Assembly (NCBI GenBank): GCA_038321315.1
Contig: JBBQEX010000005.1
Coordinates: forward strand, 1-36,096
From: Haliangiales bacterium
GTDB lineage: Bacteria > Myxococcota_A > Polyangia > Haliangiales > Haliangiaceae
Reading direction: 5' to 3'
Length of the DNA stretch: 36,096 bases
The notes under the pieces were generated by a model, which ran no database searches, was not told the DNA's origin, and worked only from the letters and a program-made list of their open reading frames with translations. The position numbers and the translations under genes are program-made. Shown here in pieces: positions 2,897 through 36,096 of the stretch (position 1 is the first letter of the stretch; every line of letters starts with the position of its first letter).

Positions 2897-3006
2897 GGCG
2901 GGATGGTACGTCGCGCTGTCATCGGCGATTCGCCGACCCGGACGAATTGTCACCCGACGCGACCTTCGGCGACGCGACAACGCGCGGTTAGCCGCTGGCG
3001 CGCCGC

Positions 3007-5118: not shown

Positions 5119-5125
5119 CGGTGGC

Positions 5126-9490: not shown

Positions 9491-9515
9491 TGCGCGCAGT
9501 GTATTACCGATAGCC

Positions 9516-13763: not shown

Positions 13764-14869
13764 AGCTTGTGCGGCCCGACGAGCGCGTCGACCTCGTCGT
13801 CGCTCGGTCCGGATTTCAGCTTGATCGTCGCGACGCCATCGGTCCCGACGGTGACGTCGAGGACGGTCGGCGCCGGCGCCGGCTTGGCGGTCACCTTGCC
13901 GTTCCCGGCGAGCACGTCGACGTCGACCGAGCGCGAGACCGGAACGTCGACGAGCGGGCAGCGCGGTGGCGTCTTCGCGTCGCCGGCGACGCACAGCGTC
14001 AACAGCTTGGCGTGCTCGAACTCCGAGCGCGTGTCGTCGTCGTTCGTCGAGCTCATCGAGTTCTGCGTGTTCTCGACGTTGCGCCAGATCCACCAGACGT
14101 CGTGCTTGCCGACCGACTTCTTCTCGACCTTGTCGATGAACGTCGCCTCGACGCCCTGCATCCGATCGATGTCGAGCTCGGCATCGGCGACGTAGCGGCC
14201 GGCATCGTCGAACAGGTACGCGTAGCTGCCGCGACCCCGCAGCTCCCACAGGTGGAGCCCGGCGAGCGGCGCCGGCGTCTTCTCCTCGCAGGTCGCGTCC
14301 GCGGCGTCGAAGTGTGGCGTGAACGCGTTCTCCTTCAGGCACGCGCACGGCTTCTGGTTCGGCTTGCACGCGAGCCCGGCGACCTCGGCTGGCGCCTTGG
14401 GGTTCTGCCCGAGGCGCACGATCGCGTCGCCGACCGTCTTGTTCGGGCGCAGCGCGACCGACGCGAGGTACGCGCGCACCGCGCCATCCTTGTCGCCCGA
14501 CTTCTCGAGCACGGTGCCGAGGTTGTAGAGGGCCGCGGCCTTCACCTTCTTGTCGATCGCGACCGCGACGGCCTCCTCGTCGGCGATCCGCGCCTTCTTG
14601 AAGTCGCCGGCGTTCATCGCCGAGAACCCCAGCTCGCCGAGCGCGCGCGCGTCGGCCGGGACCGCGACGAGCGCGGCCTCGAACTCGGGTACCGCGGCGG
14701 CCCACTGCTTGGTCTTCTGCGCCGCCCAGCCGCGCTTCATGTGCTGCTTGAACTCGGTCTTGGCCTTGGCGGTCGGCGGCGGCGGCGCCTTGTGTGGTCT
14801 GGGATCGGCGACCGCGGCCGAGGCGATCGCGAGGACGAGGACGACAGCGCGCTTCATCGCCTTCACCAT
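13757..14869 (-). CDS. Secreted TPR-like, Cys-rich protein (paralog B of a tandem pair)
   Basis: Signal peptide MKRAVVLVLAIASAAVA. TPR-like block WAAAVPEFEAALVAVPADARALGELGFSAMNAGDFKKAR. Conserved Cys pattern CKPNQKPCACLK…ATCEE…LCVAGDAKTPPRCPL. C-terminal SGPSDDEVDALVGPHKLW is shared with the gene at 14863-16056. Confidence 0.6.
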   Translation of the reverse strand: MVKAMKRAVVLVLAIASAAVADPRPHKAPPPPTAKAKTEFKQHMKRGWAAQKTKQWAAAVPEFEAALVAVPADARALGELGFSAMNAGDFKKARIADEEAVAVAIDKKVKAAALYNLGTVLEKSGDKDGAVRAYLASVALRPNKTVGDAIVRLGQNPKAPAEVAGLACKPNQKPCACLKENAFTPHFDAADATCEEKTPAPLAGLHLWELRGRGSYAYLFDDAGRYVADAELDIDRMQGVEATFIDKVEKKSVGKHDVWWIWRNVENTQNSMSSTNDDDTRSEFEHAKLLTLCVAGDAKTPPRCPLVDVPVSRSVDVDVLAGNGKVTAKPAPAPTVLDVTVGTDGVATIKLKSGPSDDEVDALVGPHKLW

Positions 14870-16056
14870 AGCTTGTGCGGGCCCACGAGGGCGTCGATCT
14901 GTTCGTCGCTCGGGCCCGACGTCAGCTTGATCGTGACCACACCGTCGGCGCCGAGCGCGACGTCGAGCAGCGTCTCGGTCGAGCTCGACTTCTTGGCGAC
15001 CTTGTCGTCGGGCCCGAGGGTCTCGCTCTCGAGCTTGCGCTGCTTCGGGATCCCGACGAGCGGACAGCGCGTCGGCTGCTTGGCCTCGCCGACCACGCAG
15101 ATCGTGACCTCGTGCCCGGTCAGGATCTCGGTCGTGACGTCGTCGTCATCGCCGGTCGACTCGCTCGAGTTGTCGATCGACGTCTCGATCCACAGCACCT
15201 GGTGGGTCCCGAGCTTCTTGACCTCGATCCTGTCGACCGTCGTGGTCTGCATCGCGCGGCGCTGTTCGTCCTCGAGGCCGAGGTCGGCGATGTAGCGACC
15301 GGCGTCGTCGAACAGGTAGTCGAACTCGGTGTGCGTGCGGTCGTCGTCTTCCTGCTTCCACACGTGGAAGCCGGGCGCGGGTGGCGGACCCTCGGTGCAC
15401 TTCGCGACGTCCGACGTCATCTTGCCCATGAACGCGTCCTGCTTCATGCAGTCGCACGGCTTCTGATCGGGCTTGCAGACCTCGGTGACCGCGACCGCCG
15501 GATCCTTGCCGAGCTTGCCGACCGCCTCCATCACCGTCTTGTTCGGGCGCAGCGCGAGCGACGCGACGTACGACTTGAGCGCGCCGTCCTTGTCGCCGGT
15601 CTTCTCCTGCACGGTGCCGAGGTTGTAGAGGCCCGCGGCCTTCACCTTCTTGTCGACCGCGATCGCGATCGCCTGCTCGTCGGCCTCGCGCGCCTTCTTG
15701 AAGTCGCCGGCGTTCATCGCCGACCAGCCGAGCTCGGTGAGCGCGCGCGGATCACTCGGGATCGCGACGAGCGCGGCCTCGAACTCCGGCACCGACTCCG
15801 CCCACTTCTTGGCCTTCTGCGCCGTCCAGCCTGCCTTCAGGTGCTTCTTGAACTCGGCCTTCTGCTCGGCGGTCGCCGGGGCGTGCTTGTGCGTCCGCTT
15901 CTTCGACGGCGCCGCGGAGCCCGAGCCCGCCTTCGGCGCCTCGACGACCTTCGGCGCGACCGCGCTGCCGCTGCCGCTGCCGGTCTTCGCCGGATCGTTC
16001 GCAGGTGCCTTGCCGCAGCCGACCGTCAACACCGCGACCGCGAGCAGGAGCTTCAT
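14863..16056 (-). CDS. TPR-like, Cys-rich lipoprotein (paralog A of a tandem pair)
   Basis: Lipoprotein signal MKLLLAVAVLTVGCG. Gly/Ser/Ala/Pro/Lys-rich linker. The same TPR-like block and Cys pattern (CKPDQKPCDCMK…AKCTEG…ICVVGEAKQPTRCPL). C-terminal SGPSDEQIDALVGPHKLW. ATG at 16054-16056. Confidence 0.65.
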   Translation of the reverse strand: MKLLLAVAVLTVGCGKAPANDPAKTGSGSGSAVAPKVVEAPKAGSGSAAPSKKRTHKHAPATAEQKAEFKKHLKAGWTAQKAKKWAESVPEFEAALVAIPSDPRALTELGWSAMNAGDFKKAREADEQAIAIAVDKKVKAAGLYNLGTVQEKTGDKDGALKSYVASLALRPNKTVMEAVGKLGKDPAVAVTEVCKPDQKPCDCMKQDAFMGKMTSDVAKCTEGPPPAPGFHVWKQEDDDRTHTEFDYLFDDAGRYIADLGLEDEQRRAMQTTTVDRIEVKKLGTHQVLWIETSIDNSSESTGDDDDVTTEILTGHEVTICVVGEAKQPTRCPLVGIPKQRKLESETLGPDDKVAKKSSSTETLLDVALGADGVVTIKLTSGPSDEQIDALVGPHKLW

Positions 16057-22160: not shown

Positions 22161-22913
22161 GTGAAGCGCTTCGGCTATCCAGCCCTGACCGGCCTCGTGA
22201 TCCTCGGGATCTGGTGGGGGCTGTCCGCGGCCGGCGCGTTCCCGGTCGGCACGGTGCCGACGCCGATCGAGGTCGCCAGGGCGTTCGGCGAGGAGCTCGC
22301 CTCGTTCCGGCTGCTCGAGGACACGATCGCGTCGCTCTACCGCGTGGCGTGGGGCTTCATCGTCGGCGTCGTGCTCGCGGTCCCGCTCGGGCTCGTGATC
22401 GGCCGCGCCGCCGGTCCGCGCGCCGCGCTGATGCCGTGGATCAACTTCTTCCGATCGCTGTCGCCGATCGCGTGGATCCCGTTCGCGATCATCTGGTTCG
22501 GCATCGGCGATCCGCCGGCGATCATGATCTTGTTCATCGCGACGTTCTTCCAGATCGTGCTGGCGACCGCGGCGGCCGCGGCGAGCGTCCCGAAGGTCTA
22601 CTACCGGGTCGCGCAGGACCTCGAGCTGTCGAAGGCCGACATCCTGTTTCGCATCACGCTGCCGGCGATCATGCCGCAGCTGGTGACCGCGCTCCGGGTC
22701 GCGATCGGGGTCGCGTGGATGGTCGACGTCGCCGCCGAGATGATGGCGGTCCGCAGCGGCCTCGGCTTCCTCATCATCGACTCGCGCAACGCGCTCCGCA
22801 TGGACCTCGTCGTGTGCGGCATGATCTCGATCGGCACGATCGGCATCCTGCTCGACATCGTGTTCGCCAGCCTCGTCAAGATCCCGAGCGTGCGCTGGGG
22901 GTTCGAGCGATGA
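22161..22913 (+). CDS. ABC transporter permease, NitT/TauT (SsuC/TauC-like) family
   Basis: Six hydrophobic spans. EAA-like loop region …ELSKADILFRITLPAIMPQLVTALRVAIGVAW. GTG start. Confidence 0.7.
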   Translation: MKRFGYPALTGLVILGIWWGLSAAGAFPVGTVPTPIEVARAFGEELASFRLLEDTIASLYRVAWGFIVGVVLAVPLGLVIGRAAGPRAALMPWINFFRSLSPIAWIPFAIIWFGIGDPPAIMILFIATFFQIVLATAAAAASVPKVYYRVAQDLELSKADILFRITLPAIMPQLVTALRVAIGVAWMVDVAAEMMAVRSGLGFLIIDSRNALRMDLVVCGMISIGTIGILLDIVFASLVKIPSVRWGFER

Positions 22914-23623
22914 CCGAAGCGATCCTCGAGCTCGACGGCGTCGGGTTCGACTACGGCGACAACGTCGTGATCGACAAGCTCGACCTGCGCGTCGAGAAGG
23001 GCGAGATCGTGACCTGCGTCGGCCCGTCGGGCGGCGGCAAGTCGACGCTGCTCAACCTGCTCGCCGGCCACCTGAAGCCGACGCGCGGCACGCTCGTGCG
23101 CCGCGGCCAGAGCCGCACGATCTACCAGGACGGCGGACTGTTCCCGTGGCTGAACGTGCACGACAACATCGCGCGGGGACTGCCAGCGAAGCGCGACGTC
23201 GCGAAGGACGCCACGACGGTCAAGGACTGGCTCGCGATCATGCGGCTCGACGACTTCGCCGCGCACTACCCGCACCAGCTGTCGGGCGGCATGCGCCAGC
23301 GCGTCGAGATCGCGCGCGCGCTCGCGGCCGAGACCGACATCCTGTTGATGGACGAGCCGTTCTCGGCGCTCGACTACCAGAGCCGCACGCGGATGCGACG
23401 CGAGCTCGCCGCGACGCTCGCCGAGCGGCCGCGGACCGTCGTGTTCGTGACCCACGACATCGAGGAGGCCGTGCAGCTCGGCGATCGCGTCGTCGTGCTC
23501 GGTGCCCGACCGGCGAACGTGCGCCGGATCCTCGAGCTGCCGCCCGGGCGCCCGCGCACGCCGGCATCGCCCGGCGTCGGCGAGGCCGAGCAGGCCATCA
23601 TGGAAGAGCTCGGTCTCCTGTGA
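22910..23623 (+). CDS. ABC transporter ATP-binding protein, NitT/TauT family
   Basis: Walker A GPSGGGKST, signature LSGGMRQRVEIARAL, Walker B ILLMDEPFSALD, H-loop VTHD. ATGA overlap with the permease stop. Confidence 0.85.
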   Translation: MTEAILELDGVGFDYGDNVVIDKLDLRVEKGEIVTCVGPSGGGKSTLLNLLAGHLKPTRGTLVRRGQSRTIYQDGGLFPWLNVHDNIARGLPAKRDVAKDATTVKDWLAIMRLDDFAAHYPHQLSGGMRQRVEIARALAAETDILLMDEPFSALDYQSRTRMRRELAATLAERPRTVVFVTHDIEEAVQLGDRVVVLGARPANVRRILELPPGRPRTPASPGVGEAEQAIMEELGLL

Positions 23624-24633
23624 ACGCCGCCAAGCTCGCGCTCGTCACCGCCGGCACGCTCGCCGCGCTGACCGTCCTGCACAAGCGTCCGTGGGAGGCC
23701 GGCGACGACGCGAATGCCGCGACGCTCGCGGTCGGCTACCTGCCGGTGACCTGTCACCTGACGTGCCCGGTCACCGACTTCGCGACCAAGCACTCGCAGA
23801 CCAGCACGCACTTCGAGTCGAAGCGATTCACCGATTGGCCGACCGTCGTCGAGGCGCTGAAGTCGCGCAGGATCGATGCGACGTTCATCCTCGCGCCGCT
23901 CGCGAAAACGCTGCGCGAGCAGCACGTGCCGGTGCACATCGTCTATCTCGGCCACCGCGACGGCTCGACGGTGATCGTGCCCAAGAGCTCGACGTACCAG
24001 ACGATCAAGGATCTCAAGGGCAAGGTGTTCGCGCGCCCGAGCAAGTACTCGAACCAGTACCTCGTGATCTTGAAGCTCATGGAGGACAACGGGATGCAGC
24101 CCGACGACATCAAGTTCGTCGACATGGCGCCGCCCGACATGCCGTCGGCGCTCGGGGCCGGCGCGATCGACGCGTACTTCGTCGGCGAGCCGTTCGCCGC
24201 CAAGGCCGAGCTCGCCGGCACCGGGCGCGTCCTGTACTACGCCAAGGACATCTGGCCGCACTTCATCTCGTGCGTGCTCGTCGTGCGCGACGAGCTGATC
24301 AAGGAGCATCCCGAGCAGGTCACCGATCTCGTGCGCGGCATCGCCGAGAGCGGCGAGTGGGCCGAGCGCCACCGGATGGATGCCGCGCGGCTCGCGGCGC
24401 CGTACTACCGCCAGGACCGCAAGCTGCTCGAGTACGTGCTGACCGAGCCGCCCGATCGCGTGAGCTATCGCCAGCTCACGCCGTCGGACGAGGACCTGAA
24501 CCAGATCATGAAGTACGCGATCAAGTCGGGGATCCTCCACGGGCCGATCGAGCTCGCGGACCTCGTCGATCGCCGGTTCATCCCGGCGCGCATCGAGCCC
24601 GCGCTGATCGAGCTCGATCCACCGACCAAGTAG
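23620..24633 (+). CDS. ABC transporter substrate-binding protein (NMT1/SsuA-like; aliphatic sulfonate / nitrate / taurine class)
   Basis: GTG start overlapping the ATPase stop (GTGA). Signal-like AAKLALVTAGTLAALTVL. Periplasmic binding-protein-like sequence. Confidence 0.6.
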   Translation: MNAAKLALVTAGTLAALTVLHKRPWEAGDDANAATLAVGYLPVTCHLTCPVTDFATKHSQTSTHFESKRFTDWPTVVEALKSRRIDATFILAPLAKTLREQHVPVHIVYLGHRDGSTVIVPKSSTYQTIKDLKGKVFARPSKYSNQYLVILKLMEDNGMQPDDIKFVDMAPPDMPSALGAGAIDAYFVGEPFAAKAELAGTGRVLYYAKDIWPHFISCVLVVRDELIKEHPEQVTDLVRGIAESGEWAERHRMDAARLAAPYYRQDRKLLEYVLTEPPDRVSYRQLTPSDEDLNQIMKYAIKSGILHGPIELADLVDRRFIPARIEPALIELDPPTK

Positions 24634-24640
24634 TCACGTC

Positions 24641-25354
24641 TCACGACTTGTCGATCGGTGGAAACGAGCCGCTGCTGAGCGACGGCAGACCGCCGGTCGC
24701 GGGCTTCGCGGGCGCGGGTGCGTCGGGAGCCGTCGACATCGGGAACGTGTTCTCCGGCAGCGGGCCCTCGAGCGCGGGTGGCATGGTCATGCCGAGGCGA
24801 TCGGCGAGCACGCGCCAGCCGTGGAACGCCCAGGCGCCGCCGTAGACGATGACCGCGGCGACGGAGAGCCGGCCGACCTCGCCGGAGCTGCCCTTGGCGA
24901 ACAGCGCCTGGAACGTCATCACGAGCGCGAGCAGCCCGATCGCACCGACGAACAACAGGTTGAGTCCGGCCATCAGGCGGCGCACGCCGGGAAACTCGCG
25001 CTGGTTGGTGCGCATGAGGAGGATGACGTGGGTGACCCAGATCGCGAGGCCGGGCACGAGCAACGCGAACCCGGCACGAAACATGTGGCTGCGGTCGTCG
25101 TCCTTGCTGACCAGCGACCACAGGACGATCGTGCCGCCGAGCAGCGCGATCTGGCAGCCGGCGGTCGCGAAGTAGCCGAGCGCGACCTTGACGCCGAGGT
25201 GAGGGTCGGCGACCGGCTCGCGATGCTGGCGCCAGCGCGCGAGGATGTAGAGCACGAACGGGAGTGTGAAGAAGATGTAGCCGGTCGCGCTCGACGCGAT
25301 CGACGGCAGCATGATCCGCGCGCCGAGGGAGTCGTCCGAGAACAGGCCGAGCAT
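24641..25354 (-). CDS. Hypothetical integral membrane protein (about 5-6 TM helices)
   Basis: Start MLGLFSDD at 25352-25354. Several hydrophobic helices. Pro/Ala-rich C-terminal tail. Upstream codons of ORF 24641..26962 are Arg-rich junk. Confidence 0.5.
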   Translation of the reverse strand: MLGLFSDDSLGARIMLPSIASSATGYIFFTLPFVLYILARWRQHREPVADPHLGVKVALGYFATAGCQIALLGGTIVLWSLVSKDDDRSHMFRAGFALLVPGLAIWVTHVILLMRTNQREFPGVRRLMAGLNLLFVGAIGLLALVMTFQALFAKGSSGEVGRLSVAAVIVYGGAWAFHGWRVLADRLGMTMPPALEGPLPENTFPMSTAPDAPAPAKPATGGLPSLSSGSFPPIDKS

Positions 25355-25411: not shown

Positions 25412-27391
25412 ATGCGCGCCCATCGCCTCGTCGGTCTCGCGCTCGGGTTGGGTGTGGGGCTCGCCGGCGTCGCCGACGCCGACGTCGAAGACCCGATGGT
25501 CCTGCCACCGACGGCGATCCACGCGACGCTCGACGGCACCCAGGCCAAGCTCGTCGCGCGGTTCGCCCACCGCGTCGCCGGCACCGAGCAGACCGCGCTC
25601 ATGCTGAGCAGGCCGTGGGGCGCGGTGATCACCGGCGCGAGCATCACCGTCGAGGGCGAGACGCACCGGCTCGCGCTCGTGCGCAAGGACGCGGCCGACG
25701 CGGCGTTCGACGCGATCCACGAGGCGGCGCCCGGCTCGGCGCGACGCTGGGGCGTCGTGATCGCGGACGCCGGCATGATGCCGTCCGCGACGTTCCTCGC
25801 GCCACACGCCGCGTGGGCGACCATCGACCTCGAGCTGTCGATGCCGACCTGCTTCTTCAACGACACGCGCTATGCGCTCGTGCCGGCTGACTGGGAAAAG
25901 GCGTTCGACGTCGCGCTGCGCAATCGCCCGATCAGCGACGCCGCGATCATCGCGTGCCGGGGCATGCGGGGCCGAGGCGACGACGCCGGGATGCTCGCGC
26001 TCCCGAGCAAGGAGCTCGCCTCGCGGCCGCCCGGCGAGCCCCGGCTCGGCGTCACGGCGGGCCGGCTGCCGCTGCAGACCACCCACTTCGCCCGCGTCGA
26101 GCTCGACCTCGCCGGCACGCTGAGCGCGGTGCCTCCGGACCTCGCGACCGCGATCGTGATCGACGGCTCGCGCTCGGTCGATGGCGATGATCTCGAGGCC
26201 GAGCGCCGCGTCGTCGCGTCGTACCTGCGGCACGCGCCGAGCTCGCGCGTCCAGGTGATCGCCTATGCGCGCGGAGCCCACGCGATCCTGCCGGCATGGT
26301 CGCTCGCGTCGCGCGCCGCACCGCGCGTCGATCGCGAGATCCGCGCGCTCGTCACCCGCAACGGCTCCAACCTCGACGTCGGGCTCGCCGAGGCCGCGAC
26401 CTGGCTGAACCGCGTCGAGGGCACCCGGCGCGTCATCCTGTTCACCGACGAGCGGCTCGCCGAGGCGGTCGCCAAGTTGCCGGCCTCGACGCTCGTCTCG
26501 CTGCTGCCGCCGCACACGCTCGTCCACGTCGTCGCGATCGATGGTCAAGCCGACGCGCTCGAGCGCGGCGAGACCATGTTCGCCGACGTCGCGACGGCGA
26601 CCGAGGGGATCGCGGTGCGCGGCGGGATCCGCGACGGCGGCACCGGCGACGCCGAGTTGCTCGCGCGCCCGATCTCGCTCGACGACGTCACGATCGATGC
26701 GCCGGGCTGGACCGACGATGGCGGCGGCACGTGCCCGAGCGACGAAGCCGGGCTCGCGCTCCGCGAGGGCCACGCGTGTACGTGGTGGTGGTCGGGCACC
26801 GCGGTGTCGGGGCCGATCACCGTCGGGGGTCGCATGTGGGGTCACCCGCTCTCGCGCATCGTGCACCCCGATCCGACCCGCGCCGTCGCGCTCGCCCGCG
26901 AGCGTCAGCCCAGGTCGGCCTTCGAGGGGGCGATCGCCGAGCAGCTCATGGACGCGGCCCACGCGGTCAATGGGCGCTGGTCGCTGTTCGGGTCGTGGGG
27001 TGGGCGCGGCGGCTACAACGACCTGGCCGAGGGCGGTGGGATCGGCCTCGGATCGATCTGCGGTTGCGACACCGCCGGCACGCTCGGCAGAGGTGGCGGC
27101 ACCGGCACGCTGAAGCTGAACCCGTTCTCGCTCGAGAGCCAGCTACGCAACGGGCTGCGCGCGTGCAACGTGCGCCACGATCGGGTCGAGGTCACGGTCG
27201 AGACCACGCTGCAGGAGATCGTCGCGCTCGACGTCAAGGTCGTCGAGGGTCTCGGCTTCGATCAGAGTCCGACGTCGCAGACGACCAAGCAGGCGTGCGC
27301 CGAGGAGGCGCTGTGGAACGTGTCGCTCGCGCTCCAGGATCCGCCGTTTCACGCGACCACCGAGCTCGTGATCGGTCCCGCCGGCTATTAG
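25412..27391 (+). CDS. Secreted von Willebrand factor A (vWA) domain protein with a VIT-like N-terminal region and a Gly-rich C-terminal region
   Basis: Signal peptide MRAHRLVGLALGLGVGLAGVADA. vWA MIDAS motif AIVIDGSRSVDGDD (DxSxS), with downstream NGSN and VILFTDERL (the LTDG-like motif). Gly-rich GSWGGRGGYNDLAEGGGIGLGSICGCD. Confidence 0.65.
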   Translation: MRAHRLVGLALGLGVGLAGVADADVEDPMVLPPTAIHATLDGTQAKLVARFAHRVAGTEQTALMLSRPWGAVITGASITVEGETHRLALVRKDAADAAFDAIHEAAPGSARRWGVVIADAGMMPSATFLAPHAAWATIDLELSMPTCFFNDTRYALVPADWEKAFDVALRNRPISDAAIIACRGMRGRGDDAGMLALPSKELASRPPGEPRLGVTAGRLPLQTTHFARVELDLAGTLSAVPPDLATAIVIDGSRSVDGDDLEAERRVVASYLRHAPSSRVQVIAYARGAHAILPAWSLASRAAPRVDREIRALVTRNGSNLDVGLAEAATWLNRVEGTRRVILFTDERLAEAVAKLPASTLVSLLPPHTLVHVVAIDGQADALERGETMFADVATATEGIAVRGGIRDGGTGDAELLARPISLDDVTIDAPGWTDDGGGTCPSDEAGLALREGHACTWWWSGTAVSGPITVGGRMWGHPLSRIVHPDPTRAVALARERQPRSAFEGAIAEQLMDAAHAVNGRWSLFGSWGGRGGYNDLAEGGGIGLGSICGCDTAGTLGRGGGTGTLKLNPFSLESQLRNGLRACNVRHDRVEVTVETTLQEIVALDVKVVEGLGFDQSPTSQTTKQACAEEALWNVSLALQDPPFHATTELVIGPAGY

Positions 27392-27406
27392 GCGTATCGT
27401 CGAGGG

Positions 27407-29014
27407 ATGCGATCCTCGATCCTCCTGATCTTCGCGGTCGCCGCGTGTGGCGACGACGGTGGTCACCCGGCCGGTCCCGACGCCAACACGATCACGCCGC
27501 CGGGCAAGACGTGTGGCGCGCCGGTCACCGCGGTCGACACCTCGACGCCGGCTCACGTGGTCGGCGACGGCACCGCGGGCTCGTGCACCGAGGGTGCGCT
27601 CGCGACCGCGCTCGCCGCCGGTGGCACGATCGCGTTCTCGTGCGGCGGGCCGGCGACGATCGCGGTCACCGCGACGCTGTCCGTGCGCACCGACGTCGAC
27701 ACCACGATCGACGGCGGCGGCATGGTCACGCTCGACGGCGGCGACGCGGTGCGCATCCTGTCGTTCGATCACGGTGACTATCGCAAGAACCACACGGTGC
27801 TCACGCTGCAGCACGTCACGCTCGCGCACGGCCGCGCGCACGGCACGACGATGTACGCCCCCGCGCCGGCACCGTGCTCGCAGGGCTACTACGATGGCTA
27901 TGGCGGCGCGCTGAACTTTCGCGACGGCGAGCTCGTCGTCATCGACTCGACGTTCGTCGGCAACCAGGCCGAGGCGCTCGGGCCTGACGTCGGCGGCGGT
28001 GCGATCGCGCTGCTCGGCGCGAGCCGCGTGATCATCGCGACCAGCACGTTCACCGGCAACAAGGGCTCGAGCGGCGGGGCGATCAACTCGCTCAACAGCG
28101 AGCTCGAGGTCTACGACTCGAACTTCGATGGCAATGTCGCCGAGGGCAACGGGGCCAACAGTGACGACGCGTCGAAGTGCGCGGTCGTCGCGACCAACGG
28201 CCAGCACCAGGTCGGCTCGGGCGGCAACGCCGGCGCGATCGGGATCGACGGCGGCGACGATCTCACGCACGTGTTCTGCGGCGTGCACTTCACGAACAAC
28301 CAGAGCGGCCTCGGCGCCCTCGGTGGCGCGCTCGGGCGCACGCCGGATCGCGATCGTCAGACCACGGTGATCGACCGCTGTACGTTCGACGGCAACACCG
28401 GCGACTCCGCCGCGGCGCTGTACTTTCACAACAGCGAGCTCGACATCACCGCGACGACGTTCTCGAACAACGTCGCGCAGAAGGGCAGCGGCGCGATCCA
28501 GGCCGACGGCACGCACTTCCAGATCCTCAACTCGACGTTCACCGGCAACCGCGCGATGGCCGGCCTCGGCGGTGCGGTGTCGCTGTTCGGCGGCGACGGC
28601 ACCATCGCGTTCTCGACGTTCGCGGCCAACCACGCCGACGGCGGCGATCCCTACTTCGGCGCCGCGATCGGCGGCAACCCGACGTTGACGCTGGTCGGCG
28701 ACCTGTTCGTCGACAACACCGCGCAGAACCCCGGCGCGCCGATGCAGTGCCACGTGACCGGCACCGGCGACGGCGACCTCCAGTGGCCGCGCGGTCACGT
28801 CGTCGGCGGCGGCGACGATGCGCCGTGCACGCCGACAACGACGTTCGCCGATCCACTACTCGGCCCGCTCGGCGATCACGGCGGCGCGAGCGCGACCTTG
28901 GTCCCCGCCGCGACCGGGCCGGCCCATGGCGCCGGCGTGATGTGCCCGGCGACCGATCAGCGTGGCATGCCGCGCCCGGCGACCGGCTGCACCTCCGGCA
29001 GCGTCGAGCCCTGA
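27407..29014 (+). CDS. Lipoprotein with right-handed parallel beta-helix repeats and a C-terminal DQRG-containing region (choice-of-anchor-Q-like)
   Basis: Lipobox LLIFAVAACG. Repeated beta-helix turns (FVGNQAE, FTGNKGS, FDGNVAEGNGA, FTNNQSG, FDGNTGD, FSNNVAQ, FTGNRA, FAANHADGG, FVDNTAQ). C-terminal DPLLGPLGDHGG…CPATDQRGMPRP. A GAGGGA Shine-Dalgarno lies 5 nt upstream. Confidence 0.6.
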   Translation: MRSSILLIFAVAACGDDGGHPAGPDANTITPPGKTCGAPVTAVDTSTPAHVVGDGTAGSCTEGALATALAAGGTIAFSCGGPATIAVTATLSVRTDVDTTIDGGGMVTLDGGDAVRILSFDHGDYRKNHTVLTLQHVTLAHGRAHGTTMYAPAPAPCSQGYYDGYGGALNFRDGELVVIDSTFVGNQAEALGPDVGGGAIALLGASRVIIATSTFTGNKGSSGGAINSLNSELEVYDSNFDGNVAEGNGANSDDASKCAVVATNGQHQVGSGGNAGAIGIDGGDDLTHVFCGVHFTNNQSGLGALGGALGRTPDRDRQTTVIDRCTFDGNTGDSAAALYFHNSELDITATTFSNNVAQKGSGAIQADGTHFQILNSTFTGNRAMAGLGGAVSLFGGDGTIAFSTFAANHADGGDPYFGAAIGGNPTLTLVGDLFVDNTAQNPGAPMQCHVTGTGDGDLQWPRGHVVGGGDDAPCTPTTTFADPLLGPLGDHGGASATLVPAATGPAHGAGVMCPATDQRGMPRPATGCTSGSVEP

Positions 29015-30193
29015 CTAGGTCCGGCTGATGCTCTGGAAGGTCGCGAGGGCCCACGCCTCGTCGCCCTTGCACGTGACGATCGCGAGGTGCGGTGCGTCGA
29101 CGACGATCGCGTGCACGACGCGGACGCCATCCTCGTCGCGACCCTCGGCGCGACCGCGCAGCGTGCCCTCGCTGCGGCGCGCGATCACCGGGTGCGCCTC
29201 GGGCGCGACCGCGAGCAGCGCCGCGGAGTCGAGGCCCGGATCCGCCGTCAGCGTGGTGAACTCGAGCGCGCGAAACCCGTCGGTCGCGACGTAGCGAGTC
29301 TCGTCGTCCTCCCAGCCACCGACGAGCGCGCCGGGGAGTCGCACGGTCCAGCCGCCCGAGAGCTCGACCTCGACGTCGAGCCGGCGATAGCCGATCGTCG
29401 GCAGCTCCTTGCCACCCCGCGCGCGCACGCGCTCCGCGAGGTCGTCGTCGAGATCGAGCGCGTCGACCAGCGAGCACCAGTCGGCCCACGGCAACACGAG
29501 CTCCGGATCGGCGGCGTGGGCGGCGGCGAGCCAGCCGTGGACGCGCTGGAGCAGAGCCGTCTCGTCCTCGTCGATCGGACGGCGCCACGGCACCTCGTGC
29601 CACATCGCGAGCAGCGCGCGCGAGCGCGCCTCGACGCCGGGCCCGGTGCCCCACCACGCGAACGCGTCGCGACCCCGGGTCGGATCGGCGATCACCGCCG
29701 CGCGCCACGCGGCATCGCGCGGGCCGAGCGCGGTGAGCACCGGCGCATCGGTCGCGAACGTCTTGCCTCCGGGCATCGCGATCCGTACCGGGCCGTCGAC
29801 CGCGAGGCGGCGCGCGAGCCAGGCGAGGTGCTCGCCGGCGACATCGAACGGGGGATCCTCCTCGAGCCAGGCGAAGTCGAGCTCGTCGAGGATCGGCGCA
29901 AGCCGCGCCGCGATCTCGGCGTGGTAGCCGGGGCCGAGCGCGGACGTGTCGCCCTTGACCTCGAGGCCGCCGTCGGGCAGGACCACGATCCGCGTCGGCG
30001 ACGCGAACGGATGCAGCTTGAACGTCACGCGGCGCGGCGTCGCGTCGATCACCGCCTTCTTGAGCGCGCGCTTCGCGAGGCGCGCGAGCCGCTCGCCGAC
30101 CTCGTCCGCGGCGGGAGCCTTGCCGCCGAGCAGCGCGCGCACGCCGCCGCGGGCCTTCTTCGATCGTGCGACGCGGTCGAACCCAACGGCCAC
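29015..30193 (-). CDS. Hypothetical protein (392 aa, no recognisable motif), divergent from the AAA ATPase gene
   Basis: Balanced, Trp-containing composition, against Arg-rich junk on the opposite strand. The stop codon abuts the stop of the convergent beta-helix gene (TGACTA). Confidence 0.45.
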   Translation of the reverse strand: MAVGFDRVARSKKARGGVRALLGGKAPAADEVGERLARLAKRALKKAVIDATPRRVTFKLHPFASPTRIVVLPDGGLEVKGDTSALGPGYHAEIAARLAPILDELDFAWLEEDPPFDVAGEHLAWLARRLAVDGPVRIAMPGGKTFATDAPVLTALGPRDAAWRAAVIADPTRGRDAFAWWGTGPGVEARSRALLAMWHEVPWRRPIDEDETALLQRVHGWLAAAHAADPELVLPWADWCSLVDALDLDDDLAERVRARGGKELPTIGYRRLDVEVELSGGWTVRLPGALVGGWEDDETRYVATDGFRALEFTTLTADPGLDSAALLAVAPEAHPVIARRSEGTLRGRAEGRDEDGVRVVHAIVVDAPHLAIVTCKGDEAWALATFQSISRT

Positions 30194-30216
30194 CGGTCGA
30201 GCGTACGATACTTGTG

Positions 30217-32334
30217 ATGATCGAGTACGCCGACGCGGCGGTTCACCTGCGCGACGAGCTCCGGCGCGCGTGGCTCCGCGTCGAGTACCAGACCCGGCTC
30301 GGCTGGACGAAGTCCGCGGTCGCGCTGTCCGACGAGACCAGCGTCGGTCCCGCCGAGCTCGGCCGGCTGTTCGCGAACGCGCGCGGCGAGCGCGGCCCGC
30401 TCGGCGACGAGGCCGGTGCCAGGACGATCCTCGCGCAGTGGCTCGCGCTCCACCGCGAGATGGAGGCCAAGTTGCGCGCGGCGACCGAGGCGCGCGTGCG
30501 CTCGCCGATGCTCGATCTGATCCGCACGTTCGAGCTCACGCCGCGCCAGTGGGCGACCCTCATGTTCGCGCTCCTGCCCGAGATGGATCCGAATCTCGTG
30601 ATCGCCTACCGCGCGCTCACCCGCGATCCGAGCTGCCGCGGGCTCGACGGCCGGCTGCTCGCGATGCTGGTCTACGACACGCCGCAGGCGCGGTCGATCA
30701 TGGCACGCGACCTGTCGCCGACCTCGCCGCTCGTGCGCTACCGGCTGGTCGACGTCACGTCGATCGCCGGTGGGCCGAACACCGACTCCTACGTGTTCCG
30801 CAAGATCCGCGCGGCAGGCCGGCTCGCGCAGCTGCTCGACGGCGCCGAGCTCGAGCTCGATCCCGAGCTGGCCGAGCTCGCAGAGCTGCGCGGTGGCGTG
30901 GCGGTCGGCGAGTTCCCGGCGATCGCGGTCGAGCGAGTGACCGCGGCGCTGTGCTCGAACGAGGTCGTCGTCGCGCTCCAGGGTCAGCGCGGTCTCGGCA
31001 AGAAGCTGCTCCTGCAACAGGCCGCGGCGCACTGGGGCAAGCAGCTGCTGCTGATCGACGGCAAGCGCATCGCGCAGCTGCCGGCCGCGGCACACCAGCA
31101 GACGCTGCGCGCGCTCGTCCGCGAGCTGATGCTGGCCTCGGCGATCCCGGTGTGGCCCGAGGTCGACGACATCACGGTGCGCGACGGCGATCGCGACGAG
31201 ATGCCGGCGCTGTTCACCCAGTTCCTCCAGGAGTGGAGCGGCCCGGTCGCGATCACGATCAACCGCGAGCGCATGCCGCGCGTGAACCTGCGACCGATCG
31301 TGCACCTCACGCTCGAGACGCCGACGATGGAGGTCCGCACGCGGCTGTGGCAGCGCGTCGTGCCGAGCCTGTCGCACGAGGTCGCCGACAACCTGTCGTC
31401 GCGGTTCGCGACCCCGGGCGGCGTGATCGTCGCCGCGGCGCAGGCCGCGACCGCCGGGCGCATGCCCGAGTCGGGCCCACCGATCGGCCGCGAGCTCGAG
31501 CGCTCGGTCGGCGATCAGCTGCACCAGCGGCTGTCGCGACTCGGCAAGAAGCTGGCGACGCCGTTCGATCTCGAGGACCTGATCGTCGACGACGACACGC
31601 GCGCGGCGATCATGGAGATCGCGTCCGCGTCGCGCGAGCGCCGCAAGGTCCGCGACCGCTTCAAGCTGCGCGGCGCGGCCGGCATCTCGGTGCTGTTCTC
31701 GGGCCACCCGGGCGTCGGCAAGACGATGTCGGGCACCGTGCTCGCGAAGCGGCTCGGCCTCGACATCTACGAGGTCGATCTGTCGCAGGTCGTCTCGAAG
31801 TGGCTCGGCGAGACCGAGAAGAACCTGTCCGACGTGTTCGACGCCGCCGAGCCCGGCCACGTCGTCCTCCTGTTCAACGAGGCCGACTCGCTGTTCGGCA
31901 AGCGCACGACCGACGTCAAGTCGAGCAACGATCGCTACGCGAACATGGAGACCAACTACCTGCTCCAGCGCCTCGAGCGGTTCAACGGGCTCGCGATCCT
32001 GACGACGAACCTGACGTCCGCGATCGACCAGGCGTTCAAGCGCCGGTTCTCGTACGACGTGTTCTTCTCGTTTCCCTCGCCCGACATGCGCGCCGAGCTG
32101 TGGCGCCGCACGCTGCCGCGCGATCCGAACTCCAAGGCGCAGCCCGAGATCGACTTCGACGCGCTCGCCGAGCGCTACGAGCTGTCGGGCGGCTTCATCA
32201 AGGTCGCGTGCGAACGCTCGGCCTATGTCGCCGGCGCCGAGACCCGCGAGATCGACGAGCCGCTGCTGCGCGCGACGATCGAGCGGATGTATCGCGAGCG
32301 CGGCAAGCTGTCGTCGGTCGGCCCTCTCGAATAG
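30217..32334 (+). CDS. AAA+ ATPase with a large N-terminal region containing a degenerate Walker-A-like domain plus a canonical C-terminal AAA domain
   Basis: Canonical domain: Walker A GHPGVGKT, Walker [12 protein letters not shown], sensor/Arg-finger region [17 protein letters not shown]. Upstream degenerate P-loop [20 protein letters not shown] at 30217, preceded by an in-frame GTG. Confidence 0.75.
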
Positions 32335-32342
32335 GTGGATCC

Positions 32343-32699
32343 ATGCTCGTCGCCTCGCAAGTCTTCGCCGGTCTCGTCGCGCTCCTGCACGTGTACTTCC
32401 TGGTGCTCGAGATGTTTCTGTGGACGACGCCGTACGCGCAGAAGACGTTCCATCGCACCGCCGCGCAGCAGGAGGAGAGCAAGGTGCTCGCCGGCAACCA
32501 GGGCCTCTACAACGGGTTCCTCGTCGCCGGCCTCGTGTGGTCGATGGTCAGCGGCGATCTGCACGTCCGCATGTTCTTCCTCGGCTGCGTCGCGGTCGCC
32601 GGGATCTACGGCGGCCTGACGGCGAGCAAGAAGATCTTGTTCGCCCAGGCGATCCCCGGGGCGATCGGCCTCGTGGTGACGATCCTGGCAAACCGCTGA
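32343..32699 (+). CDS. DUF1304-like small membrane protein
   Basis: 118 aa, 3-4 hydrophobic helices. N-terminal LVALLHVYFLVLEMFLWTTP resembles DUF1304. Begins 9 nt after the ATPase stop. Confidence 0.45.
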   Translation: MLVASQVFAGLVALLHVYFLVLEMFLWTTPYAQKTFHRTAAQQEESKVLAGNQGLYNGFLVAGLVWSMVSGDLHVRMFFLGCVAVAGIYGGLTASKKILFAQAIPGAIGLVVTILANR

Positions 32700-32772: not shown

Positions 32773-33459
32773 ATGGTGATTGTCCTCGGGGCGGCGGCGC
32801 TCGTCGGCCTCCTCTACCTGTTCTGCTATGGCGGCTTCGGCGGCCCGGTCGACTGGATCATGAAGACCCAGCTGCACGGCGATCGCGGCCTGTCGCGGGT
32901 CGCGCTGACGTTCGACGACGGCCCCGATCCGGCGCACACGCCGGCGCTGCTCGACGCGCTCGCCGAGCTCCACGTCAAGGCGACGTTCTTCGTGCTCGGT
33001 GCCGAGGTCGACAAGCACCCCGCGCTGGTGCGCCGCATGGTCGCCGAGGGTCACGAGCTCGGTAACCACACGTACACGCACCGCTACCTGCCGCTGGCGC
33101 GCAGCAAGAACGTGATGAAGGAGCTCGCGGCGACCGATCGCGCGATCGCGCAGGCGACCGGCATCGTGACGACGCTCGCACGCCCGCCGTACGGTGGTCG
33201 CTCGCCGAAGACGGTGCGCGCGTTCGTCCGCGCGGCGAAGCGGCTGGTGCTGTGGGACGTCAACAGCTTCGACTGGAAGGGCAAGCCGGCGCCGGACGTC
33301 GTCGAGCGCGTGCTCGAGCGCACCCGGGCGGGCAGCATCATCCTCATGCACGAGGCGCGGCAGGGCGGAGACGTCACGATCGACGCGGTGCGGTTGCTCG
33401 TGCCGGCGCTGCGCGCGCGCGGCCTCGAGCCGGTCACGGTGTCGGGTCTGGCTCGATAG
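32773..33459 (+). CDS. Polysaccharide deacetylase (CE4 / NodB-homology domain), membrane-anchored
   Basis: N-terminal TM helix. TFDDGP (the catalytic Asp and metal-ligand motif), HELGNHTYTH (the His-His motif) and LMHE. Confidence 0.75.
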   Translation: MVIVLGAAALVGLLYLFCYGGFGGPVDWIMKTQLHGDRGLSRVALTFDDGPDPAHTPALLDALAELHVKATFFVLGAEVDKHPALVRRMVAEGHELGNHTYTHRYLPLARSKNVMKELAATDRAIAQATGIVTTLARPPYGGRSPKTVRAFVRAAKRLVLWDVNSFDWKGKPAPDVVERVLERTRAGSIILMHEARQGGDVTIDAVRLLVPALRARGLEPVTVSGLAR

Positions 33460-34210
33460 GCGTGTCGCGCAGCGTCGCGAGGATCGGCCCGTGGTCGCTC
33501 GTGCCGACGAGCCGATAGACGCGACAGCTGACGGTGTTGTCGACCAGCGCATGCGACGCGGCGACGTAGTCGAGCCGCCAGCCGATGTTGCGCGGCCGCA
33601 TGTTGCGCCACGGCGCCCACCACGAGAACAGCCGATCGTTGTCGGGATCGACGAGCCGGCCGACGTCGACGAGGCCGTGCGAGAACAGCTTCTCGATCAG
33701 CGCGCGCTCGGGATCCGACTGGCCGATCATGTCCTTCTGGAGCGATGGATGGACGTCCCTCGCGGTGCGCGCGACGTTGTAGTCGCCACACAAGACGAGG
33801 TGCTTGCCGGCGGCCTCGAGCGCGGCGGCCCACTGTTCGAGCGCGGCGAGGAACACCATCTTCGCCGGGAAGTCCTTGCCGCCGTTCGGGCCGTACATCG
33901 ACGCGAACACGAGGTCGTGAGCGACCTCGGCGGTGACCAGCCGATTCTCGAAGTCGAACTCCGGGTGCGCGAACACCGGCGGCTCGGGGAACGCCGTCTT
34001 CGCGAGCAAGAGCGCGACGCCGGAGTAGCCGCCTTCGCCGTGCCAGCGCGCGTGGTAGTCGGGGAGCTCGCGCAGCGTCGGCGGCACCTGGTGCAGCGAC
34101 GCCTTGGTCTCCTGGAGACAGATCACGTCGGGTTTCTCGTCGGCGATCCACGCGAGCAGCTGGGCCTCGCGCGCGCGGACGCCGTTGACGTTCCAGGTGC
34201 CGATCTTCAC
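33434..34210 (-). CDS. xth: Exodeoxyribonuclease III (ExoIII/Xth family AP endonuclease)
   Basis: VKIGTWNVNG (GTG start), DVICLQETK, GDYNV and C-terminal SDHGP motifs of the EEP-fold ExoIII family. One-nt overlap with the upstream gene's TAG stop. Confidence 0.8.
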   Translation of the reverse strand: MKIGTWNVNGVRAREAQLLAWIADEKPDVICLQETKASLHQVPPTLRELPDYHARWHGEGGYSGVALLLAKTAFPEPPVFAHPEFDFENRLVTAEVAHDLVFASMYGPNGGKDFPAKMVFLAALEQWAAALEAAGKHLVLCGDYNVARTARDVHPSLQKDMIGQSDPERALIEKLFSHGLVDVGRLVDPDNDRLFSWWAPWRNMRPRNIGWRLDYVAASHALVDNTVSCRVYRLVGTSDHGPILATLRDTPIEPDPTP

Positions 34211-35250
34211 TACTGGACGGTAGCTTCGATCGTCGGCGCTGCGAAGCCTGCGACGCTCACCGCGATCTCCCACGTGCCGACCGCGCTGGTCGGCGCGGTC
34301 AGCGTGACGAGCCCGGTGGCCACGCCATCGATGACCTGGAGCTCGACCGGCGCGGCGATGAGGATCGGCACGCCGCCGATCTTCGTGGTCAGCCGCGCCT
34401 CGGCTGGATGGATCCCGACCGGCGCGGTGATCGTCAGGCCGACCTGGCCGCCCTTGACGACGGTGCACGCCGAGCCGCAGCTCAGGTGCGACGTGATCGT
34501 CGGCGGCGACAGCGCGATGTCGATCGGCGCCGAGCGGCCGTCGCCGACCTGTGCGGCGAGCGACCACCGGCTGCCGGCGGGGACGTCGATCGCGACGTTC
34601 GCCGTCGGTGACGCGACCACCGCGATCGGATCGGGCTGGGTGATCTGATCGATCGTCTGGAGGATCTCGACCGGCACGGCGATGTCGCCGGGGATCGAGA
34701 TCGTCGCGTGGACCTGGCCGACCGCGCCGGTCAGCGCGCACGCGAGCCCGGGCTGGCACTCGGCGAGCGCGAGCGCGATCGGCGGTGGCACGGTCGTGAA
34801 GATCGTCGGCGACTCGGTGCGAAAGCCCTCGCCCGCACCCGCCGCGATCCGCACGTCCGTCGACGATCCGGCTGGTGCGCGGAACGTGGCGAGGAAGAAC
34901 GCGCGGGTGCCGAGCCGCTGCTCGGGCGAGATGTCGACATGGACGTCGCGTGCGACGCCATCGACCACGACGTCGACCGTCGGGGTCGGCGCGACGGTGG
35001 TCGCCGCGAAGTCGACGTCGGGCCCGTAGTCGATGACGACCTCGACGAGATCGACGCCGGCGAACAGCGTCGGGAACGTCTCGGTGTCGCACACGTTGGG
35101 CACCGCGAGCTCGGCCGGCACCGGGTTGTCCGGCGTCATCAGCGCGAAGCAGCTGTCGGTGCGCTTCAGCACCGAGAGGATCGGCGTGACCGGCGCGGGG
35201 GCCTCGCATGCCGCGGTCACCAGCGCGACCGCGATCATTACTTTCATCAT
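34210..35250 (-). CDS. Hypothetical lipoprotein (beta-rich, probably Ig-like repeats)
   Basis: MMKVMIAVALVTAACEAP lipobox. A strong Shine-Dalgarno GAGGGAG precedes the ATG at 35248-35250. Repetitive Val/Thr/Ala/Ile beta-type sequence. Confidence 0.55.
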   Translation of the reverse strand: MMKVMIAVALVTAACEAPAPVTPILSVLKRTDSCFALMTPDNPVPAELAVPNVCDTETFPTLFAGVDLVEVVIDYGPDVDFAATTVAPTPTVDVVVDGVARDVHVDISPEQRLGTRAFFLATFRAPAGSSTDVRIAAGAGEGFRTESPTIFTTVPPPIALALAECQPGLACALTGAVGQVHATISIPGDIAVPVEILQTIDQITQPDPIAVVASPTANVAIDVPAGSRWSLAAQVGDGRSAPIDIALSPPTITSHLSCGSACTVVKGGQVGLTITAPVGIHPAEARLTTKIGGVPILIAAPVELQVIDGVATGLVTLTAPTSAVGTWEIAVSVAGFAAPTIEATVQ

Positions 35251-36096
35251 GGCTCCCTCGTGTTCGAGCTCGGCTGGACCGCGTGGCGGACCAGGTCGGG
35301 CAGGTTGAGCTGGATCGAGAAGCCGACGTACGGCGAGGCGATGATGTGGGCATCCTCCTCGGCGAGCGTGCTGCGCTTGCGGTCGAGCAGCGCGGCACCG
35401 AACGACAGCGACGTGTAGGGGATGACGTGCAGCGCGACGCCGAAGAACAGCGGCGGCAGCTTGCCCGGGCCGCCGAACCGCCCATCGGGGCCGAAGCCGT
35501 CGCCGGTCGGCGCGAGCCCGACCTCGAGCGCGATCGCGCGGCGCAGGTCGTGCGCCGTGACGCCGTGGCCCCACTGGACCTCGTGCACCGGGTTCGGGTC
35601 GAGGTGGAGCTCGACGCCGACGAAGCCGAGCCCGAACGACTCGTCGGTCCGCAGCACGCCGACCGCGCCGACCACCGGCGTCAGGTAGGAGAACACCCAG
35701 GTCGAGGTCTCGAACGAGATCCGCAGCGGCAGCGGCGCGGTGGTCGTCACGGTGACGACGCGGCGCGCGCGGGCCTGCAGCTTGTCGCGCGCGGCCTTCC
35801 ACGCGACGTCCTCCTTGACGAGATCGTCGAGGAGCTCGACCAGGCCGTCGAGGGCCTTGAGGTCGAGCTTGCGGCACGCGAGCCACTCGCCGAGGTGGCG
35901 ATCGGTCGAGGCCGGCGTGAGCTCGGCCTCGTCGTTGCCGATCGGGCCGGTGCGGCACTGCGCGGTCTGCGCGACCGACTCGGCGTACTGATCGAGGCGG
36001 CGCAGCTGCGCCAGCGCGCCGCCGAGGAACGCGGCGTCCTCGGCGGTCCACTCCTCGAGGCCGAGCGCGGCGACCCGGGCGGCGAGCGCGTCGAGC
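35247..36096 (-). CDS. Hypothetical protein; the 5' end lies beyond the window edge
   Basis: The minus-strand frame is open from 36096 down to the stop at 35247 (my own translation: …LDALAARVAALGLEEWTAED…QTAQCRTGPIGNDEAELTPASTD…). The ORF track reports only the part after the internal GTG at 35750. The stop overlaps the downstream ATGATG. Confidence 0.45.
   Translation of the reverse strand, partial: LDALAARVAALGLEEWTAEDAAFLGGALAQLRRLDQYAESVAQTAQCRTGPIGNDEAELTPASTDRHLGEWLACRKLDLKALDGLVELLDDLVKEDVAWKAARDKLQARARRVVTVTTTAPLPLRISFETSTWVFSYLTPVVGAVGVLRTDESFGLGFVGVELHLDPNPVHEVQWGHGVTAHDLRRAIALEVGLAPTGDGFGPDGRFGGPGKLPPLFFGVALHVIPYTSLSFGAALLDRKRSTLAEEDAHIIASPYVGFSIQLNLPDLVRHAVQPSSNTREP

Follow-up and report, generated by a model that had tools for sequence, protein, structure and literature searches.

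The interval 25412-32699 of a 36,096-nucleotide stretch of a Haliangiales bacterium genome (contig JBBQEX010000005.1, assembly GCA_038321315.1; the whole stretch is called the window here) carries genes for a secreted vWA protein, a β-helix lipoprotein, a protein of 392 residues (called U392 here), and an AAA+ ATPase. We consider this interval likely to be a conserved stretch of the Kofleriaceae (Haliangiales, Myxococcota) chromosome that holds four functionally separate things and not one system. The ATPase can be assigned from its sequence to the Afp15/Pvc15/Alg15 (Cis15) type of AAA+ proteins, as an orphan and lineage-specific variant with no tail genes in its vicinity. U392 is a member of a large undescribed family, and the other two are unrelated exported proteins. 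This reading draws on observed gene identities, on the sequence and architecture that place the ATPase in its family, on counts of gene presence and absence, and on the local absence of tail genes.

The window has a GC content of approximately 70 %, and long spurious open reading frames (ORFs) are abundant as a result. Genes were called from codon-position GC profiles, a simple caller based on GC at third codon positions (GC3), and the translations. By codon-position GC and translations, the four genes that the initial annotation had described within about 7 kb are all real. The end coordinate of 32699 given for them had to be corrected: the last position of the ATPase gene is 32334, and a DUF1304 gene of its own, the fifth in the interval, occupies 32343-32699. 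A 917-residue ORF at 29946-32699 (+) is a wrong-frame, GC-rich artefact that overlaps the ATPase and runs into the DUF1304 gene. Its last 118 codons are this real gene, with the change of frame at approximately 32340, and the artefact probably set the earlier end coordinate. The genes of the interval are as follows.

25412-27391 (+): secreted VIT-like and vWA protein, 659 residues; VWA_2, metal-ion-dependent adhesion site (MIDAS), ITIH4 profile match
27407-29014 (+): β-helix lipoprotein, 535 residues; lipobox, NF041518, weak Chlam_PMP
29015-30193 (-): U392, 392 residues, cytoplasmic; no Pfam model
30217-32334 (+): ATPase, 705 residues (NCBI call), ATG start; PF22977, weak AAA_16, and PF00004
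32343-32699 (+): DUF1304 membrane protein, 118 residues, backbone gene; PF06993 (E 9.7e-38), syntenic in relatives

U392 and the ATPase gene diverge, as had been described, with 23 bp between their start codons; alternative GTG starts of the ATPase are at 30166 and 30214. The stop codons of the β-helix gene (+) and of U392 (-) abut at 29014/29015 with zero intergenic bases. The β-helix gene starts 15 bp past the vWA stop, and because of this spacing the two are probably co-transcribed.

Conservation of the neighbourhood

The genes were followed through approximately 55 Kofleriaceae/Haliangiales loci. The neighbourhoods examined were five found by exact look-up, 54 loci from species-representative genomes, and two loci reached from the ATPase side. 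Related loci were gathered with a close U392 alignment (genomes) and as a motif-selected distant subset (metagenomes). Presence was scored by tblastn with the window proteins, and one locus (L007) was too short to be informative. The ATPase gene, divergent from U392, is present in 34 of the 40 loci with at least 5 kb of sequence upstream of U392. The vWA gene, convergent with U392 and usually abutting it, is present in 27 of the 48 loci with at least 3 kb downstream. The two occur independently of each other (counts 18/13/4/1; Fisher p=0.63). The β-helix gene gave zero tblastn matches in 64 + 27 related loci and is an insertion specific to the strain, placed between U392 and the vWA gene; a repeat search revealed only its β-helix coil repeats and no mobile-element boundaries flanking it. 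The genes around the locus (xth, deacetylase, DUF1304, NMT1 ABC transporter, F420 oxidoreductase, Kelch, and DUF2330) are syntenic. Because these flanking genes are conserved in place too and the ATPase and vWA genes are independent, the locus is a chromosomal backbone that has been conserved, while the ATPase cassette and the vWA gene are each present or absent in it as separate elements.

The initial annotation had treated the combination of vWA, β-helix, unknown protein, and AAA+ ATPase as a possible system, which would be a new nucleoside triphosphate (NTP)-dependent conflict or signalling system of the vWA–MoxR kind. The contiguity of the four genes within 7 kb and the abutment of the vWA gene on U392 in about half of the relatives are in keeping with such a system, and the pairing of vWA with AAA+ proteins is a theme already known from the literature (Kaur et al. 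2020, cited in PMC12067865). However, the idea largely fails because the β-helix gene is missing from all related loci, the vWA gene is independent of the ATPase, and the vWA and β-helix proteins have export signals whereas U392 and the ATPase are cytoplasmic. The ATPase is also not of the AAA_3/AAA_5-type MoxR clade, since its Pfam domain is the classic AAA (PF00004) and its best PDB match is to the second AAA domain (D2) of VAT/CDC48/p97. Its PADLOC matches are generic to AAA proteins, and two genes, one of them on the opposite strand, intervene between it and the vWA gene. A four-gene system is thus not supported, and we hold it to be very improbable. The set is for the most part not co-localized in other genomes; what is conserved of the combination is the adjacency of U392 and the ATPase.

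The ATPase and its variable cassette

Pfam divides the ATPase into an N-terminal winged-helix domain, a weak AAA_16 match over a degenerate P-loop in the first AAA domain (D1), and a classic AAA domain (PF00004, E 5e-27). The initial annotation had correctly described the degenerate N-terminal P-loop and a classic AAA domain, predicted to be active, behind it. The individual features are listed here.

30226-30774 (+): N-terminal winged-helix domain, PF22977, E 5.1e-16
30982-31005 (+): degenerate D1 P-loop GQRGLGKK, Lys/Arg in place of the expected Ser/Thr
31702-31725 (+): D2 Walker A GHPGVGKT, identical in 116/116 orthologs
31861-31887 (+): D2 Walker B, Asp replaced by Asn (N554), catalytic Glu (E555) kept

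The same succession of winged helix, weak AAA_16, and AAA is seen in the ATPase of an Afp-type cluster on a Serratia proteamaculans plasmid and in an ATPase from Nostoc. In a pairwise BLASTP comparison, the window ATPase aligned with the Serratia protein over residues 98-699 at 29 % identity (E 5e-63). The Serratia gene lies between a contractile-injection tape measure gene and DUF4255/sheath genes. The best PDB matches, at approximately 100 bits, show that D2 resembles the D2 of VAT/CDC48/p97, but the whole protein aligns much better with the ATPases of extracellular contractile injection systems (eCIS) than with VAT/CDC48/p97. Its N-terminal region matches that of eCIS ATPases and is not that of a housekeeping family. 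Relatives on plasmids were found by tblastn with the full-length query, and a search of plasmids with the N-terminal region alone gave no match. Among the top plasmid matches, the Enterobacter eCIS ATPase adjoins a tape measure and Pvc16, the Brasilonema ATPase adjoins DUF4255, and the Deinococcus ATPase adjoins VgrG. The Nostoc ATPase adjoins a 2074-residue DUF4157 protein, with no tail genes within 10 kb.

Pvc15 is described as combining an N domain whose homology is DNA-binding-like with a D1 and with a D2 that is active and has E555 as its catalytic residue (PMC11495950), and Alg15 is described as required for the loading of cargo with disordered N-termini (bioRxiv 10.64898/2026.05.27.728243). 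The window ATPase shares the architecture of a winged-helix N domain, a degenerate D1, and a classic AAA D2 that is predicted to be active, and it is similar over nearly its full length to the ATPase of a bona fide eCIS operon. Because of these two properties we assign it to the Cis15 family as an orphan member, which agrees with its earlier placement in the classic clade (the Pvc15 kind) and not with MoxR. No contractile-tail gene cluster was found around the gene in the window or in the related loci searched (see below), and its D2 Walker B departs from the canonical hhhhDE.

The Walker B motif reads LLFNEAD in all 116 Kofleriaceae orthologs, in contrast to FFDEAD in the Afp15-like and Nostoc ATPases. 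A pore-loop region, KW[LV]GETEK, and the SRH (second region of homology), TN....ID.AFKRRF, are likewise common to all 116, and the D1 P-loop GQRG[LVI]GK[KR] is conserved among orthologs. The identity of D2 is 83-89 % in genomes that share only 60-75 % in their backbone proteins. Since 116 orthologs are of full length with intact motifs and D2 is conserved beyond the backbone, this comparison of sequences indicates strong purifying selection on the ATPase. The same observations bear on whether the gene is a decaying remnant of a lost eCIS locus with no current function. The absence of tail genes, the Asp to Asn change in Walker B, and the loss of an upstream partner gene in the window (see below) would fit decay. 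It is nevertheless hard to reconcile with full-length orthologs that keep Walker A, the catalytic Glu, the pore loop, and the SRH invariant, or with the D2 identity relative to the backbone genes; neither a ratio of non-synonymous to synonymous substitution rates (dN/dS) near 1 nor frequent frameshifts were seen among the orthologs. We regard decay as improbable in the extreme.

Assignment of the ATPase to a defence system was rejected. The PADLOC and NCBIfam matches (IetA, TRIP13, CdvC, and PAN) are generic to the AAA core and far under the family cut-offs. For IetAS, NF042959 scored 80 bits against a cut-off of 510, in the AAA core only; the PADLOC IetA match is confined to the AAA core as well, and the window encodes no S8 protease.

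Nearly all relatives with a readable junction have at least one gene between U392 and the ATPase, in the orientation of the ATPase. Clustering and Pfam scans identified these cassette genes.

33 loci: protein of 190-325 residues with a disordered, Ala/Pro/Glu-rich (acidic) N-terminus and a conserved core; the two longest members match the TGL transglutaminase family
14 loci: trypsin-like protease with a transmembrane (TM) segment and an FHA domain
7 loci: Ser/Thr kinase
1 locus (L006): SMODS nucleotidyltransferase
1 locus (L059): eCIS_core (DUF4157) with a microbial transglutaminase

Example coordinates of the cassettes are L003:9136-9906, L059:6716-7918, L006:2355-3272, and L001:6336-9859. 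The trypsin–TM–FHA gene is followed by a Ser/Thr kinase gene in about half of its loci. With three exceptions (L027, L035, and L047), every locus that has a transglutaminase-like or a trypsin–FHA gene has it between U392 and the ATPase. The window and L067, which holds the closest relative of the ATPase (72 % identical in the N-terminal region), have no gene in this place, and there the start-to-start spacer is 23-25 bp. In L067 (1-2842), U392 and the ATPase gene are together inverted with respect to the F420-oxidoreductase/Kelch/DUF2330 block; only one such case was seen, on a contig whose end falls within U392.

It is possible, though we think it unlikely, that U392 and the ATPase form a lineage-specific two-component module, in which the C-terminal domain of U392 would hold or present substrates to a Cis15-type unfoldase and the variable genes in between would encode the clients. 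The divergent adjacency in 34 of 40 loci, which is also found in both look-ups made from the ATPase side, points this way, as do the short spacer in the window and L067 and the apparent inversion of the pair as a unit in the latter. The position of the transglutaminase-like and trypsin–FHA genes in nearly all of their loci is in line with it, and the predicted fold of U392 resembles that of Eag/SciW effector chaperones and the Tsi3 immunity protein. On the other side, six loci with at least 5 kb of upstream sequence have U392 and lack the ATPase cassette. The adjacency is confined to one family in which the housekeeping flanks are syntenic too, and it is gone in distant U392 relatives. Because of these U392-only loci, the far wider U392 family, and its distant members without an ATPase, U392 is independent of the ATPase family-wide, which argues against an obligate partnership.

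Tail genes were sought in two ways. Pfam scans of the window gene calls (all but a few short ones) showed no tail-type domains. When nine structural proteins of Afp were compared by tblastn with the window and related loci (96 sequences in all), there was no match, which for approximately 45 related loci means no tail gene within ±10 kb; this search is insensitive to divergent tail genes. The earlier remark that no phage-tail genes accompany the ATPase holds on this evidence.

An ATPase of this family could instead act in trans, as the cargo loader of a complete contractile injection system (CIS) encoded elsewhere in the genome, and its position beside U392 would then be incidental. Its membership in a family of bona fide eCIS loaders makes this conceivable. 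In addition, the L059 cassette encodes a DUF4157/eCIS_core–transglutaminase protein, and the transglutaminase-like partner has a disordered N-terminus, as eCIS cargo does (bioRxiv 10.64898/2026.05.27.728243). Yet known eCIS encode the ATPase inside the operon, and here no tail gene is near. The fixed chromosomal position and highly conserved D2 are unlike typical mobile eCIS loci, and the Walker B variant is specific to the clade. On balance, we doubt that the ATPase is such a loader.

Several points weigh against our preferred reading of four separate things. The adjacency of U392 and the ATPase is very consistent, and the joint inversion in L067 hints at a link between the two beyond mere synteny. 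The Asp to Asn change in Walker B could mean that the ATPase does not hydrolyse ATP in the manner of Pvc15. The low sensitivity of tblastn with Serratia Afp proteins applies here as well, and the view extends to ±10 kb around each relative and to 36 kb of a 212-kb contig in the present genome, so a CIS could lie elsewhere in the genome.

With the interval read as four separate things, we infer hexameric unfoldase activity of the ATPase, a substrate link with the upstream genes, and a possible role of U392 as follows. By analogy with Pvc15 and Alg15, a hexamer is the most likely form of the ATPase. The ring of active D2 domains would take hold of a disordered N-terminal segment of a substrate and unfold or thread it, and the winged-helix N domain with the inactive D1 would serve as a scaffold or adaptor site. 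For most relatives, we take the products of the genes immediately upstream in the same orientation (transglutaminase-like or trypsin–TM–FHA proteins) to be the likely substrates or partners; the cassette proteins are natural client candidates because a disordered N-terminus is present in the transglutaminase-like partner. Where the partner gene is missing and the ATPase stands alone, as in the window and its closest relative, it would work on substrates whose genes lie elsewhere, or in trans with a contractile injection system from another part of the genome. U392, the fixed neighbour of the ATPase cassette in this lineage, may be co-regulated with it, or its PsbP/Eag-like domain may make it a binding adaptor.

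A bolder version, to which we give rather little credence, is that Kofleriaceae took a CIS cargo-loading ATPase into a tail-independent chromosomal module. A Cis15 AAA+ with an Asn–Glu Walker B would process interchangeable clients with disordered N-termini, whose genes lie between U392 and its own (transglutaminase-like or trypsin–FHA, the latter often with a Ser/Thr kinase; SMODS or DUF4157–transglutaminase at one locus each), U392, as founding member of its family, would be the PsbP/Eag-like adaptor, and the window would show the minimal two-gene form.

U392, the exported proteins, and the rest of the window

U392 has no match in Pfam, NCBIfam, PADLOC, or PDB sequences, which bears out the earlier statement that it lacks a recognisable domain as far as sequence matches go; at the level of fold, its C-terminal domain is recognisable. 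From the translation, the protein is without a signal peptide or TM segment. It consists of an N-terminal α/β part, a helical middle, and a C-terminal PsbP/Mog1/DcrB/Eag-like domain. The predicted structure is confident, and in a fold comparison against PDB libraries the similarity to the PsbP/Mog1/DcrB/Eag superfamily is limited to the C-terminal domain. The fold matches include Eag/SciW effector chaperones, the Tsi3 immunity protein, and TplEi. None of 96 diverse family members matches any Pfam model (e.g. DUF1795), so U392 does not belong to such a family by sequence, and toxin or type VI secretion system (T6SS) neighbours are missing in most contexts. The fold suggests a binding role and is too widespread for a function to be assigned from this prediction.

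The U392 family comprises 863 clusters at 50 % identity, from Myxococcota, Actinomycetota, and other lineages. In metagenome-assembled genomes (MAGs) of Kofleriaceae/Haliangiales, the relatives of U392 at 50-60 % identity number in the hundreds. Relatives at approximately 30 % identity were found in a Nocardia genome, in one metagenomic island with Barstar, and at 27 further metagenome loci, and none of these has an ATPase, vWA, or cassette gene. The neighbours of distant relatives are heterogeneous and are unrelated housekeeping genes, among which Pfam scans show no recurring partner.

Two of these distant contexts are described for their own sake. In L010 (10001-11296 and flanks), the U392 homolog lies amid many small unknown genes, Barstar, DUF4262, DUF2251, and a resolvase. 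Such a setting resembles a mobile or immunity-gene region and differs from the housekeeping contexts elsewhere. In one distant clade (L068, 10001-14297; L069; L089), the U392 homolog is followed, in the same order, by a 126-127-residue protein, a 485-489-residue protein, and a ZnuA-like binding protein. The first two have no Pfam match in L068, and the ZnuA-like assignment is from a Pfam test of L068 only; the set may be a conserved operon. An immunity function for U392, which the Tsi3 and TplEi fold matches and the Barstar island had brought up, was rejected as unsupported, most contexts being housekeeping. U392 marks a large family with a confident predicted structure and no Pfam model, and it merits a family definition.

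The two exported proteins were as initially described. The vWA protein has an N-terminal signal-like hydrophobic stretch (read from the translation) and a VWA_2 domain at residues 246-347 (Pfam, E 1.6e-11). Its MIDAS motif DGSRS, residues 251-255 (26162-26176), is invariant among orthologs. Pfam VIT models gave no match to the single sequence, but when 20 orthologs were combined into a profile, it matched residues 20-144 of human ITIH4, in the VIT region (E 2.8e-7). The protein thus has the N-terminal VIT and the vWA domain with intact MIDAS of the VIT–vWA class. As part of the overall reading as separate things, it is probably an exported adhesion or binding protein, a variable neighbour of U392 that stands outside the ATPase module.

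The β-helix lipoprotein has the lipobox FAVAAC and a C-terminal choice-of-anchor Q domain (NF041518, E 3.6e-11, 43 bits against a cut-off of 25). The DQRG tail is at residue 517 (position 28955), inside this domain. There is a weak Chlam_PMP repeat by Pfam, and a repeat search shows internal coil repeats. These features place the protein in the choice-of-anchor Q/PMP-like β-helix class.

The remaining genes of the window near the interval are listed here.

22161-24633 (+): three-gene NMT1-type ABC transporter
24641-25354 (-): multi-TM protein, 237 residues, backbone gene flanking the vWA gene; no Pfam or NCBIfam match
32773-33459 (+): polysaccharide deacetylase
33434-34210 (-): exonuclease III (xth)

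Homologs of the 237-residue multi-TM protein adjoin U392 or the vWA gene in many Kofleriaceae loci. At the right edge, the genes 34210-35238 (-) and 35247-36095 (-) are both without an NCBIfam match, and 34210-35238 is also without a match in the Pfam scan, which covered this gene of the two. In L096, proteins of similar size without Pfam matches are found at the same position beyond xth. Further to the left, 1388-9967 encodes an M14 carboxypeptidase, a GspD-type secretin (3025-5118), DUF481, an M1 aminopeptidase, and a SEC-C-motif protein, and two paralogous TPR proteins are at 13757-16056; none of these is a tail or injection-system gene. An Rfam search found no RNA family in the window.

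Comparison with known systems

The MoxR–vWA systems (RavA–ViaA and the ternary vWA–MoxR conflict systems of Kaur et al. 2020) have vWA and AAA+ genes within a few kb, as in the window. Here, however, the ATPase is of the classic clade, the vWA protein is exported, with a signal peptide and an ITIH-like VIT, and the two genes are in different transcription units. In this GC-rich myxobacterial genome, vWA, β-helix, and AAA+ genes that lie side by side did not amount to a system.

The fold of PsbP, Mog1, DcrB (DUF1795), the Eag chaperones, and Tsi3 is shared by the C-terminal domain of U392, with no sequence similarity. U392 is three times larger than these proteins and has two extra domains without a match. 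In contrast to the Eag chaperones and Tsi3, it has no T6SS or toxin gene nearby, and the fold is widespread and not diagnostic of function.

In the T6SS, threonine phosphorylation exerts control through the PpkA kinase, Fha1, and ClpV. By analogy, the presence of a membrane Ser/Thr kinase, an FHA protein, and a CIS-family AAA+ together in L001, L037, L040-L044, L050, and L096 would recall this arrangement. The FHA protein of the cassette differs in having a trypsin-like protease domain as well, there are no T6SS genes, and the kinase and FHA genes are missing from the window.

With Afp15, Pvc15, and Alg15 the window ATPase shares the PF22977 winged helix, the degenerate D1, and a classic AAA D2 predicted to be active, together with Walker A, the catalytic Glu at position 555, and the SRH; its length is 705 residues, compared with 696 for the Serratia Afp-cluster protein. 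It differs in a D1 P-loop closer to the canonical form, in the Asn of Walker B in all 116 orthologs, and in its fixed chromosomal position in one myxobacterial family. Unlike eCIS loaders, it has no sheath, tube, baseplate, tape-measure, or Afp16 genes nearby (window and approximately 45 related loci). Cis15-type ATPases have only lately been connected with a function, the unfolding and loading of cargo in eCIS, and the present clade is strongly conserved, chromosomal, and tail-less, with swappable upstream partners and an invariant Asp to Asn change in Walker B. If the ATPase does work without a tail, the role of the family would be wider than injection-system assembly, and the question of what is recognized by the winged-helix and D1 domains could be put to a simple, tail-less system. 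Neither this Walker B variant clade nor the U392 family is yet evidence for a new kind of system.

A further parallel is plasmid pn3 of Nostoc sp. UHCC 0926, where a Cis15-type ATPase lies downstream of a putative cargo or toxin gene (DUF4157, eCIS_core) and the 10 kb around it contain no structural genes of a CIS. In Walker B, this ATPase still has the canonical DEAD. The window has no upstream partner gene at all, and in the Kofleriaceae relatives the usual partner is a short transglutaminase-like or a trypsin–FHA protein (sometimes with a kinase) and not DUF4157. The Kofleriaceae locus L059 has an eCIS_core and transglutaminase protein at the same position as the DUF4157 gene of Nostoc pn3.

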